Shown: one piece after another, positions 24,746 to 40,567 of the stretch
Position numbering within the stretch: position 1 is the stretch's first letter
How the letters are laid out: the number at the start of each line of letters is the position of its first letter
Assembly (NCBI GenBank): GCA_951406725.2
Contig: OX597816.1
Span: forward strand, 76,942,001-77,006,000
DNA length: 64,000 nt
From: Octopus vulgaris
Lineage: Eukaryota
Direction: 5' to 3'
Made by a program: the position numbers and the translations under genes
The notes under the pieces: generated by a model
Seen by the model: only the letters and a program-made list of their open reading frames with translations
The model's database searches: none
Told to the model about the DNA's origin: nothing

Positions 24746-25113
24746 TAGTAAAATACAGTGTGCATTTAAACACATAAGAGATTACCATAATAGAACATCA
24801 GACTCACTAGAAAGAGCAGTTAAACTCCAAACCACCAATAGTTGTACTTCTGAAAGAGAAAGAGAAATAAAAACGTTTACCCTATCGTTTTCATTTCTCT
24901 TTCTCTTTCAGAATTACAATTGTTGGTGGTTTGGAGTTTAACTGCTCTTTCTAGTGAGTCAGATGTCCTATTATGGTCATCTCTTATGTGTTTAAATGCA
25001 CACTGTATTTTTCTATGAATAATATATAGTCTATTCACTATTCATTCCTTCTCGCTAGACCACTGGTAGCGGAGAATTTTTCTAAAAAATTTTGCTACCC
25101 TGAGATTCATTAA
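24746..25113 (+). mobile_element. Fold-back insertion related to the 3' half of the 491-bp retrozyme unit
   Basis: Inverted arms 24746-24875 and 24887-25016 with centre AAAACGTTTACCCTATCGTTTT; 3' tail CTCGCTAGACCACTGGTAGC...TTTGCTACCCTGAGATTCATTAA then (TA)n. Confidence 0.8.
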
Positions 25114-25196
25114 TATATATATATATATATATATATATATATATTTATATATATATAATATTATATATATATATATATATATATATATATATATAT

Positions 25197-26010
25197 ATCC
25201 CATAAATAATGTTTGTTTTTTTTTTCAGTTGCATGAACTAAAGATCGGATGGGGACGGGATAAACTAACCTGCATCAACTTGCTATAAAACAGGGAGTAA
25301 TTTTATCTCTTATTCTTATTTTCAGTGAGAGTTTTGAAGAGTGTAGTTCGATTTTTAACAGCTATTTTTTCAAAGCTATAATGGAAGTGTCAAAGTAGCA
25401 TATTCGGCATATTTTGCTTTATATGTTCAATAAAGGCAACAATGCAACGAAAAGTCAAGGATTATTAATGCAGTATATACTGGATCGAACAATAAGCGTA
25501 AACCAGTGTCAACAGTGGTTCCAGAAATTTTGAGCCGGAAACTACAGCCTAGTAGACGAGCCTCCTCTTGGAAGATATGAAGAGCTCGAAGATGACGTCC
25601 TGCGAACCCTGGTGGAACAAAATCCCAATTTATCTGTTGAGGAACTAGCAGATAAGCTTGGATTTGGTCAGTCAACCATTCATCGTCACCTGCATGCCAT
25701 CAGAAAAATCAATGGAATCCTCAGAAACTTTCCGAGTCTAATTGCACGCAAAGAGTAAAAGTGTGCTCTTCTTTGCTGTCACGTCTAACGAATGAGCCAT
25801 TTTTGGAGCGAATAGTGGCCGGTGACGAGAAATGGGTTCCCTATAAAAATGTCAAGCGCCGAAGACAGTGGATAGCGAAAGGAGAAACACCGGCACCCCT
25901 GACAAAAGAAGGTCTTCACCCACGTAAAATGTTATCTGTGTGGTGGGATATGAAAGGTTTAGTCCACTTTTAACTTTTAAACCCAAACCAAACGATAACA
26001 AAGAGATCTA
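25197..26010 (+). pseudogene. 5' two-thirds of a decayed mariner element
   Basis: MEVSK*HIRHILLYMFNKGNNATKS at 25381; EPFLERIVAGDEKWVPYKN..LHPRKMLSVWWDMKGLVHF (ORF 25761-25973); truncated at the hairpin element. Confidence 0.85.
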
Positions 26011-26358
26011 CTAATAAATTTTACCAAGTAGTTTCGGTATGTAAAGAGGGTCATTATCGGTAGGAACTTTTACAAAATGTCTTTTTATATATAAATATAA
26101 TTAAGGGTTAAGTAACAAGTTGCTCAACCACATACCGAAAATTTAGAAATAGCAGCCAAAAACTGCTTATTCCTTTAACTACAGATATTACTCCACAGAT
26201 AACAATACTTGAAACTCACATTTGCCTATGTGAGTTACAAGTATTGTTATCTGTGCAGTAATATCTTTAGTTAAAAGGAATAAGCTGTCTTTGGCTGCTA
26301 TTTCTAAATTTTCGGTATGTAGTTAAGCAAATTGTTGCTTAACCCTTCATTATATTTA
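26011..26358 (-). mobile_element. Fold-back insertion of a 560-family-related 3' module
   Basis: Arms 26100-26220 and 26228-26348; motif GGCTGCTATTTCTAAATTTTCGGTATGT; adjacent to (TA)n. Confidence 0.75.
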
Positions 26359-27264
26359 TATATATATATATATATATATATGTGTGTGTGTGTGTGTGTG
26401 TGTGTGTGTGTGTGTAGATGAATAAGTAAACTTGTGTATGTGAATATGCATGCGTATATGTACGTGTGTTTGTATGTATATATACATAATTGAATAGGTG
26501 TGCGTGAGTATATATAAATATATATATAGCCATGTACATATAAATGTGTGTATTATGCAACAAAATCGGTTATAGAACTAGAAATATATAATTTACGTAA
26601 TTTCAGATTATTTGTTTATGATTAAGCTCGCTTTAAAAAGCCTTTTTTTTAATCCGTTAGCAGTTATGAACATTTTCAATTGCTATTTTTCGTGAAATAC
26701 TTAAGAAGATATGTCAATCTGATGAAATTTCATTATATTTTAACGGGATTTTATTATTCTTGGAAAACTTGGTTTTATTAACGAAGTGGAAACAGCTGTA
26801 ATTCATGAGATGTGTCAGTTGTTCGTATAAAATAATGAAATTGAATTGAATTTATCATTTAATGATTAATTATTTCATTGGTCAATTTATTGTTTTTGTT
26901 TCCATTTCTAATATATACATATATATATATATATATATATATATATATATATATATATATATATGTATGTATGTATGTATGTATGTATGTATGTATGTAT
27001 GTATGTATGTGTGTGTGCGTGTGTGTGTTTATGAGCTTGAGGGGGTGGGGATGAGTCGATTACAATAAGGATGGAAGGTAAAGTCGACCTAGGCGGAATC
27101 AGAATTCAGAACGTAGCGGTAGACGAAATACTGCTAAGCATATTTCTGTATTAAATAATTTTTCGTATATTTTAGCGCTGACTGAGAATCCTTTCTATAA
27201 CTTCATGCTCACTATCAGGTAAAAGCCTGGTCCTCCGTCTGCTTCGACAGCGAGCGTTGCAGTT

Positions 27265-27550
27265 CTGATCAACGGAACAGTCTGCTCATGAAAGTAACAT
27301 GCATGTGACTGAGCACTCCACAGACACGCAACCTTAACGTAGTTCTCAGTGAGATTCAGTGTGACACAGAATGTGACAAGGCTGTTTTTTTTTTTTTTTT
27401 GAATGACAGGTACAACTTATATTTGCCAGCCGAGTGAACTGCAGCAATGCCAAACAAAGTGTCTTCCTGAAGGAAACTACTCGCCACTGGCGTTTGAACT
27501 CACGACTTTACAATCGTGAGCCGAATGCCTTAACCCCTAACCCACGCGCC
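27265..27550 (-). mobile_element. tRNA-derived SINE family C
   Basis: Shares body GAGCACTCCACAGACAC..CTTAACGTAGTTCTC..GAGATTCAG with 51279; tRNA-like head near 27490-27550. Confidence 0.7.
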
Positions 27551-38812: not shown

Positions 38813-39569
38813 AATACGTACATGAATTATATATATTAATGAATAACTTGAGCAAGCTGTACGCAACACTGCATCACTGTATGGATAGATAAATGTTCTT
38901 TTAACGTAAATCAGTATCTCGATGCTATAGGTTTCTTGTGAATACGTTCATTGTTATTCAATCGGAGATTAAATAATGGAAGACAACCCTGAAATTGCTG
39001 CATGTTATTTCGTGAGTTTGCAGATGGTAGAAATGAACAAGCATGAACCAGTGATAAGGAAGGGCCCTACCGTATTGTTTGTTTCCCTTGTGGTGAGTCT
39101 TAAGCTCCTGAGGTTTTTCAACGAATGGTTTTATGCCATTTTCTGCAGCAAATATTTGAAATTATATGATACCGGAGCGTCTATATCTAAACGTATTGGC
39201 GGTATATTGTGCGTAGATGCTATAATAATCTTGGAGATAACCTCTCAAAATGAATAAATTTGATTCTAAAATTAACCCCAAGGGAAATAACAAGCACGAT
39301 AGCTCTGATTGCTTACCCGTGAGTGTTAACATCTCACACCATAAACTCTCGTAATATCATGTCACATTCTTGGTATTTAAATGGCATAGATATCATTTAT
39401 TATTCTAAATCCGATGCAATAAGCTGCGATTGAATACCGACACGAAACCTACGGTATCTGTTATTCATTTCTATGAAATGGATGCATCATGCATATATAT
39501 ATACATATCTAGAGAGAGAGAGAGAGTGAGAGCGAAAACAAAGTTATTTTATATTACACGGGTAGAAAT

Positions 39570-39830
39570 ACAGGATAAATAGAAAATATGCACTGGGAAT
39601 AGTTAAAATATATTTTATTATTATATATAAAGATTTAACCGGTTTCACAGTTTACACTGATTTTCAAAAATTTGATATAGAAAGATGTGCGTTATGTCGC
39701 AGATAAGCCGTGTCTTTCTATTTCACATTTTTGAAAATCGGTGTAACTGGGAAATCAGTTAAATCTTTAAATATAGCAATAAAAAATATCTTAACTTTTC
39801 TCAGTGCATTTTCAACTTCTATTTTTCCTA
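39570..39830. mobile_element. Fold-back element carrying a U3-A8 HHR variant in each arm
   Basis: Arms ~39570-39690 and 39710-39830; left arm, minus strand: attt-TTGAAAA-tcagtgtaaactgt-GAAAC-CG-GTT-aaat; ends in (TA)n. Confidence 0.65.
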
Positions 39831-39919
39831 TATATATATATATATATATATATATATATATATATATATATATATATATATATATATATATATATATATA
39901 TATATATATATATATATAA

Positions 39920-40215
39920 TTAATCCTGGTCATGTTGATTCATTGTTCTTCTCTTTGCCTTCGTAAAAAATTATGTTTACCGTCATGGAGATTCTTACAG
40001 AAGTAGAAAAGGAATTTGTAACTCCTATTTCTAACTTCGGTATGTGGTGAAGCAGTTAACTGAACCCTTATTATAATTATGTGGATAATTTTACCTATAA
40101 AGGTTATTTTAACGTACCGATCTACTTGGTAAAATCGTTAATTAATTGATTAATTAGTTAATTAGTTAATTTAATTAATAAATTTTACTCTTCTATTATT
40201 AATTTTTAATTTTAT
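39920..40215 (+). mobile_element. 560-family-related 3' module between (TA)n tracts
   Basis: AACTCCTATTTCTAACTTCGGTATGTGG...ACGTACCGATCTACTTGGTAAAAT...AATTTTACT. Confidence 0.6.
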
Positions 40216-40258
40216 ATATATACATATATATATATATATATATATATATATATATATA

Positions 40259-40567
40259 TATTCAAACATATAAGGGATGGCCATAATAGGACATCCGACT
40301 CACTAGAAAGAGAAATGGAAAGAGAAATAAAAACGTTTACCCTAGGATAGGGTAAACGTTTTTATTTCACCTTCCATTTCAGAATTACAACTATTAGTGG
40401 TTTGGAGTTTAACTGCTCTTTCTAGTGAGTCGGATGTCCTATTATGGCCATCCCTTATATGTTTGAATGTATATTACATAGTCTATTGACTATTTTTTCT
40501 TTCTCACTTGACCACTGGTAGTGGATAATTTTTCTAGAATTTTTTGCTACCCTAAAATTTTATTAAT
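40259..40567 (+). mobile_element. Fold-back insertion related to the 491-bp unit (same subfamily as 24746)
   Basis: Centre AAAAACGTTTACCCTA-GGA-TAGGGTAAACGTTTTT; arms extend to 40259 and ~40470; tail CTCACTTGACCACTGGTAGT..TTTGCTACCC; (TA)n on both sides. Confidence 0.8.

Follow-up and report, generated by a model that had tools for sequence, protein, structure and literature searches.

The 64,000-nucleotide stretch of Octopus vulgaris DNA analyzed here (the window; contig OX597816.1, positions 76,942,001 to 77,006,000 of assembly GCA_951406725.2) contains three insertions of a family of non-coding tandem repeats whose units are predicted to carry a type I hammerhead ribozyme. Two of them (elements 1 and 2) are head-to-head inverted copies lying in (TA)n and containing no CTGAnGA core; the third is an array of a 491-bp unit. 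Positions in the unit are counted from the base after the NUH triplet (+1), and arm ends are accurate to a few bases. The outer ends of the arms fall at two fixed sites, an outer site a (+237, +228, and +248 in subfamilies A, B, and C) and an inner start b (+131, ~+142, and ~+130 to +161, respectively).

Element 1 (24750-25113; subfamily C, locus L137) comprises an inverted arm (24750..24886, reverse strand; unit ~+144 to +8), which starts near b, and a direct arm (24886..25113, forward strand; +19 to +248), which ends at a. It is flanked by (TA)n on the left (the target, 24704..24747) and on the right (25113-25198), and its arms are 94% alike over 126 nt, the direct arm being 92% identical to the C unit. 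Element 2 (40260-40567; subfamily B) has an inverted arm (40260..40343, reverse strand) that starts at b (~+130 to +142; TA-like letters obscure the exact position) and reaches +11, and from which ~36 nt (+77..+43) are missing at 40312, and a direct arm (40344..40567, forward strand) running from +6 to +228 (site a); the arms overlap by 1 nt at the junction, the direct arm is 96% identical to the B unit, and (TA)n lies on both outer sides (40213-40261 and 40566-40595). Measured against their own subfamily units, the junctions thus fall at +11(+10)/+6 in element 2 (40344) and at +8/+19 in element 1 (24886). A preliminary description had placed the palindrome centres about 10 nt downstream of the expected cut and had found both fold-back elements to lack the ribozyme, and both observations hold.

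The subfamily A array (56119-58400) has four type I hammerhead matches and is itself an inverted insertion. Its inverted arm (56119..57286, reverse strand) holds 2.4 units from b (+131) to -55, with hammerheads at 56244-56346 and 56735-56837; a 28-nt filler made of repeated copies of adjoining unit sequence follows (57287..57314); and the direct arm (57315..58400, forward strand) holds 2.2 units (+137 to site a at +237) and is followed by TA repeats. The junction (57286/57315, at -55/+137) is away from the cut. The direct arm contains two hammerheads on the forward strand, one at 57573..57679 (core CTGATGA at 57581, GTC cut before 57672), in which stem I (57573-57580 with 57672-57679) is accompanied by a long stem II, GAAA, and a palindromic stem III, and one at 58064..58170 (core at 58072, cut before 58163). 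That two of the three window insertions are joined near the cut could by itself be chance; the genome-wide counts given below show that it is not.

The genome (2.8 Gb) is microsatellite-rich, and a whole-window Rfam scan and an unmasked self-BLAST were both dominated by microsatellite matches. Genome searches revealed three subfamilies, each full unit holding one predicted type I hammerhead: A (491-nt unit, the window array; 2790 exact genome matches to a 23-nt 3′-end pattern), B (454-nt unit, element 2; 147 matches to a 26-nt pattern), and C (486-nt unit, element 1; 64 matches to a 3′-end pattern). Unit A is 72-73% identical to B and C, which are 91% identical to each other; elements 1 and 2, only ~72% like the 491-bp array unit, belong to separate subfamilies, each with its own ribozyme. 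The hammerhead expected directly upstream of AGGGTAAA is accordingly found, once, in each rebuilt unit. The units are non-coding (longest ATG open reading frames 66, 37, and 34 aa; GC 0.37, 0.35, and 0.33 in A, B, and C) and encode no reverse transcriptase (RT) plus GIY-YIG frame, so they are not autonomous Penelope-like elements. Tandem arrays reach ~9 units within one arm, and the 3′ outer ends lie in TA-rich flanks in 62/68, 140/181, and 103/139 cases in A, B, and C. These features identify the family as non-coding tandem retrozymes of the Penelope type, an element class that is itself already known.

By its core, triplet, and stems, the putative ribozyme of each unit resembles a type I hammerhead: CUGANGA, GAAA, and the NUH triplet occur in order in all three subfamilies. 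The triplet is GTA in 56, GTC in 38, and GTT in 1 of the A copies, GTC in 88/92 of B, and GTC in 16/17 of C. The sequences of stems I-III differ between A and B/C with pairing kept, stem I is open, and all three units have a 12-nt palindromic stem III like that described for the dimer-acting hammerheads of Penelope-like elements (PMC4209133). The Rfam match to the A hammerhead (RF00163) scores 22 bits, below the gathering score of 34. Among the predicted folds, the lowest-energy structure of the B unit is the three-way junction; A and C monomers fold otherwise. The A unit is also covered by contigs of four sequencing runs guessed to be RNA, in which a circle junction is indistinguishable from a tandem junction.

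In the A loci L227-L255, units are near-identical within an insertion and insertions are ~5% apart; the cut is often preceded by GTA and often by GTC, and core N7 can be any of the four letters. Either rolling copying of a single RNA or selection acting on the ribozyme would be compatible with this pattern. Two further small head-to-head inverted insertions in (TA)n were seen elsewhere, one in the 3′ flank of L295 and one at L299:130-580 (G000:C16:33686530-33686980); the latter is weakly like unit B +132..+255 (62%, E 0.001) and is perhaps a further distant subfamily.

The distribution of 5′ ends was analyzed in copies picked by their 3′ ends, which left 5′ structure without influence on selection. 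For A, 41 insertions were obtained from the first 100 of the 2790 matches, which all lie on contig C1; the window array was excluded. For B, the pattern contributed the first 100 of its 147 matches; 136 loci, after removal of 10 duplicates and of 13 loci (including element 2) found only by a longer query requiring the whole +8..+228 stretch, gave 116 insertions. For C, the 64 matches and the best matches of a query with the last 124 nt of element 1 gave 89 insertions, 6 duplicates and element 1 itself having been removed. Arms in the total sample of 246 insertions were delimited by BLAST against unit multimers. Choosing the sample via site a limits the detection of insertions with b at both ends, not of those with a at both ends.

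The 5′ ends are scattered over the whole unit, with a hotspot just 3′ of the cut. At a constant rate per base at risk, 30.4 ends are expected in +1..+30 and 71 are observed (A 12/5.0, B 26/15.3, and C 33/10.1, observed/expected); this window was set after seeing B and then held in A and C. In -30..-1, 19 ends are found versus 24.8 expected. A Poisson model including start distance and local AT and T content gives a rate ratio of 2.67 (1.99-3.60) for +1..+30 and 1.06 for -30..-1; +1..+30 is the strongest 30-nt window in the unit, and no window clear of it exceeds ~1.4. AT content raises the end rate in this model, which assigns about equal likelihood to an upstream edge anywhere from +1 to +5. 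Within a single subfamily, 5-6% of sliding windows match the hotspot ratio in A and B, and 0.6% in C. The excess amounts to ~6%, 9%, and 30% of passes in A, B, and C. Among the fetched loci, 3 ends lie exactly at +1 and none at -5..-1 (4.4 expected), and C ends pile up at +5 and +9, beside G-C pairs. The excess recurs on later ribozyme passes (12 vs 5.9, p 0.016); first-pass and later-pass rates (2.6 vs 2.1) do not separate cleavage from stalling. The breakpoints are therefore non-uniform, as the preliminary description had anticipated.

In subfamily B, 5′ ends also cluster near both start sites (+116..+136 and +209..+225; 18 vs 7.3 at +121..+135). These clusters weaken after distance control and may reflect one RT running into the other's start.

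The edge was located more finely in subfamily A with a genome-wide pattern (+11..+26, then upstream letters breaking the consensus at -10..-12) that captures arms ending at -9..+11. It has 243 matches, of which the first 100 were tallied by eye; 7 are read-through variants. The other 93 ends are distributed as follows: 9 at +11, 13 at +10, 6 at +9, 18 at +8, 9 at +7, 3 at +6, and 17 at +5; then none at +4, 4 at +3, 1 at +2, 2 at +1, 2 at -1, 2 at -2, 1 at -3, 3 at -4, and 3 at -6..-8. Thus 75 of the listed ends fall in the 7 nt +5..+11 and 18 in the remaining 13 nt, a 7.7-fold difference (4.6-13.8). Control windows at +81..+99 and +273..+291 gave 118 and 59 matches, with read-through, by eye, in ~9/100 and 16/59. 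After scaling by the occurrence of each anchor in the sample (78, 107, and 70), the hand tallies correspond to end rates (per pass and nt) of 0.33 at +5..+11, 0.043 at -9..+4, and 0.050 and 0.031 in the controls, placing the hotspot ~7-10x above the two control windows. These fine details are approximate, because AT-rich flanks that match by chance shift apparent ends toward +5 and because the filters pass flanks unequally. The A hotspot is real, with a sharp upstream edge at +5 and no peak at +1; the sharp peak at the cut that had been predicted is not seen, since only 2/93 listed ends lie at +1. A wall of ends at +1, suggested by an uncontrolled search for near-symmetric junctions, was withdrawn because subfamily A has GTA variants before the cut and 5/21 of those junctions pass it by 2-6 nt. 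At ~18/75 of the listed hotspot junctions (e.g., G000:C1:50653357) there is repeated T/A-run filler resembling unit +21..+33, like the templated insertions of end-joining.

More than half of the sampled insertions (143/246, ~58%) are head-to-head inverted. Their outer ends pair a with b in 115 of the 143, a with a in 1, and b with b in 1, an end lying elsewhere in 26; b alone ends 21 single-arm insertions and therefore serves as an independent start. Within an A insertion, the two arms are 99.7% alike versus 94.6% to other insertions, and an arm's own partner is its best match in 21/21. In the older B and C insertions the own arm beats the mean in 29/30 and 22/24, and is the best match in just 10 and 5. 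Both arms were thus copied from one template sequence. Of 20 insertions whose a arm ends within +1..+30, 14 have a b arm ending within +1..+65, versus 33/95 of the others (p 0.005), and near the cut the b arm is the deeper in 19/24 single-pass insertions (p 0.007). This coupling of the inner ends and the deeper b arm would follow from a b-primed RT running ahead of an a-primed one on the same RNA.

The 143 junctions include 63 with filler of at least 2 nt, 45 with microhomology of at least 2 nt, and 35 that are near blunt, a mix in line with microhomology-mediated end-joining. The +22/+9 junction occurs in two unlinked C insertions (L145 and L183) whose flanks are unrelated and whose outer ends differ; this probably reflects recurrent use of one microhomology.

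We propose, with a probability of roughly 0.55, that two target-primed complementary DNAs (cDNAs) are made on one RNA and stop near its ribozyme-cut 5′ end. A retrozyme RNA would be copied into (TA)n by a Penelope-like RT/GIY-YIG enzyme acting in trans, the partner being a presumed one. Both target strands would be nicked and each would prime a cDNA on the same RNA, presumably simultaneously, one starting at the outer site a (+228 to +248) and the other at the inner site b (+131 to ~+161). End-joining of the two cDNAs head to head would give the inverted arm and the "tail," which corresponds to the a-b interval. Most templates would be uncut, multimeric, or circular at a given ribozyme, so that RT passes the site and terminates at dispersed positions; in a minority (~6-30% of passes, depending on the subfamily) the template would end at the ribozyme cut. 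The leading b-primed RT would stop a few bases short of the cut end, or its end would be trimmed during joining, and the trailing a-primed RT would stop behind it. Elements 1 and 2 would be such cut-end events. That the hotspot edge itself represents the cleaved RNA end seems somewhat more probable than the scheme as a whole. A fuller version, in which cut RNAs serve as templates in the germline (giving a hard 5′ edge) and a dimeric enzyme primes at the two fixed starts, one strand each, is more tentative, and we rate it a little short of even odds. If true, two-start priming on one RNA would alone explain both the inverted repeat and the one-sided tail.

For a cut end speaks the confinement of the excess to the 3′ side of the ribozyme: beyond +5, ends occur throughout stems III and II no more often than at the background rate. 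The three sampled ends exactly at +1, with none at -5..-1, point the same way. Several observations weigh against it. In A the edge at +5/+4 coincides with the first G-C pair of stem I, with +1..+4 at background; none of ~17 listed hotspot joins to TA flanks (by eye) reaches +1, despite possible TA microhomology; and the excess on later passes needs partly cut multimers. In vitro, ribozyme mutants of a Penelope-type element are reported to insert unchanged, with uncut RNA as the main substrate and no RNA-seq reads ending at the cut (Frangieh 2024, PMC11167929). No autonomous partner with a homologous repeat, and no homology to the unit at all, was found among 12 of the 148 GIY-YIG loci listed in the genome or in 5 downstream stretches compared with the unit. 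Inner ends lying within 15 nt of each other, anywhere in the unit, are in mild excess (18 vs 10.7, p 0.025), so that some insertions may be true snap-backs or may have lost their centres later. The preliminary description had inferred a genomic footprint of in vivo ribozyme cleavage and a mechanism for Penelope-type 5′ inversions. Of the 307 passes at +31, 239 continue past the cut. The footprint adjoining the ribozyme is robust, but it affects a minority of events and is offset from the cut by ~5-25 nt; as a general cause of the inversions the cut fails, most inversions lying elsewhere in the unit.

The most serious competitor, which we consider less likely, retains twin priming and attributes the hotspot to RT stalling on stem I of a folded, perhaps protein-bound, uncut ribozyme. 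The A hotspot (+5..+11) brackets the base of stem I (+1..+8), stopping at its first G-C pair, and the C pile-ups also lie beside G-C pairs; the recurrence on later passes and the predominant use of uncut RNA by the anole element in vitro, where the ribozyme is described as protein-assisted (PMC11167929), agree with a stall as well. The coupling of inner ends and the deeper b arm are predicted by cut-end and stall models alike. Other predicted stems, as stable or more so, show at most a twofold excess, and this once (B 179-213, 10 vs 5.1); the 19-bp stem II of A stays below this (5 vs 3.8). The lack of excess at equally or more stable stems therefore speaks against a generic structure stall, as does the background rate past +5.

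The preliminary description had instead proposed that a single cDNA reaches the cleaved 5′ end and folds onto itself, yielding the inverted arm. This is very unlikely and, as a general route, refuted. Consistent with it are the common template of the two arms and the slight enrichment of symmetric junctions; the partner arm at the hotspot is usually near (~31 listed rows within -6..+65 vs 6-7 far, by eye), the junctions at C12:42746459 and C9:48204216 look like hairpin priming, and self-priming, on an antisense template, has been proposed for palindromic junctions (Arkhipova 2013, PMC3846280). In 62 of 123 simple two-arm insertions, however, neither arm is contained in the other, and nesting, seen in the remaining 61, is no more frequent than after shuffling (mean 61.6). 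A b arm deeper than the a arm cannot arise by snap-back from an a-primed cDNA, and the fixed end of the second arm, which also ends single-arm insertions, is left unexplained. Nor could snap-back make element 1, because neither of its arms lies inside the other, unless its centre lost bases later. Two primings explain the inversion better.

It is more unlikely still that the hotspot results from sequence or method, that is, from short palindromes (AATT at +6..+9 in A), T-rich tracts, deletion of centres, or alignment drift to G/C. About 8/21 near-symmetric junctions do center on AATT, the effect of AT content on the end rate points the same way, and drift explains the A pile-ups at +5 and +8. 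The excess nevertheless survives composition control, occurs in three subfamilies with differing +1..+10 letters, and is seen in non-inverted copies, and an AT-rich control window is ~10x lower. Descent of elements 1 and 2 from one pre-inverted master can be dismissed: both junctions lie in the same motif, and L145 and L183 share a junction, but the window copies differ in subfamily, junction, and arm lengths, the flanks and outer ends of L145 and L183 do not correspond, and the 143 sampled inversions have scattered junctions.

Other features were noted in the window. A 294-aa open frame (45674-46555, reverse strand) looks like a mariner-type transposase, and the region left of the array (55400-55700, reverse strand) looks, by eye, like the start of the gag region of a long terminal repeat (LTR) retrotransposon. 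Among the GIY-YIG loci, L293, L298, and L300-L303 (e.g., G000:C16:20838796) represent a young retroelement family. Many intact frames of 781 aa occur in it, with a CxxC motif ahead of GIY-YIG; its copies share a constant 3′ end, beyond which lies (TA)n, and contain short tandem repeats in the 3′ region. This family was rejected as the autonomous partner, its 3′ region containing no match to the unit and, by pattern search, no hammerhead.

Published accounts treat as open both what the hammerhead does in Penelope-like elements and how the inverted repeats and tails of these elements arise (PMC8557442, PMC11167929). No paper was found that maps insertion ends relative to the hammerhead cut or pairs two starts with two arms, most subscription papers and supplements lying outside the scope of the search; supplements of published papers may hold the consensus of this family. 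A non-coding family with thousands of young copies provides a natural read-out, with ends beside the ribozyme and arms from two fixed starts. The end pattern hints at how Penelope-type elements insert.

A related process is the twin priming that Ostertag and Kazazian are said to have described for L1 in 2001, in which primers from both target strands reportedly act on one RNA to give a 5′ inversion joined by microhomology. In L1 the annealing position of the second primer varies and there is no overlap between the arms; in the octopus family, the position of the second start is constant and the same stretch of the unit is often present in both arms.

Metazoan non-LTR retrozymes (PMC7229834; 10.64898/2026.07.22.740005) are described as having a short non-coding tandem unit (GC 33-37% here) with one type I hammerhead, as ranging from monomers to multimers, and as sharing their genome with autonomous Penelope-like elements, and the octopus family is similar in all these respects. 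Its units are longer than the usual ~300 bp, and ~58% of its insertions are head-to-head inversions with two fixed starts; insertion ends are not mapped in the accessible parts of Cervera & de la Pena 2020 (PMC7229834) or Li et al. 2026 (10.64898/2026.07.22.740005). With the endonuclease-containing (EN+) Penelope-like elements (Penelope/Poseidon, Neptune, and Naiad) it shares an inverted truncated copy and a tail at one end only (PMC8557442, PMC3846280), as well as (TA)n targets and a hammerhead with a palindromic stem III (PMC8557442, PMC4209133, PMC3846280); it differs in the lack of an open reading frame and in a tail of ~86-106 nt rather than 30-40. The closest biochemical counterpart is Anolis Poseidon. 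As reported, its ribozyme cut leaves no trace in products or RNA-seq and its starts are not assigned one per strand (PMC11167929), whereas octopus ends cluster just 3′ of the cut and a and b pair in 115/143 inversions. In that in vitro system the Penelope-type protein is reported to cut and extend both strands of an AT-rich target, starting at two RNA-internal sites between which the tail lies (Frangieh 2024, PMC11167929); the octopus insertions likewise have two internal starts and an AT-rich target, and would also involve both strands.

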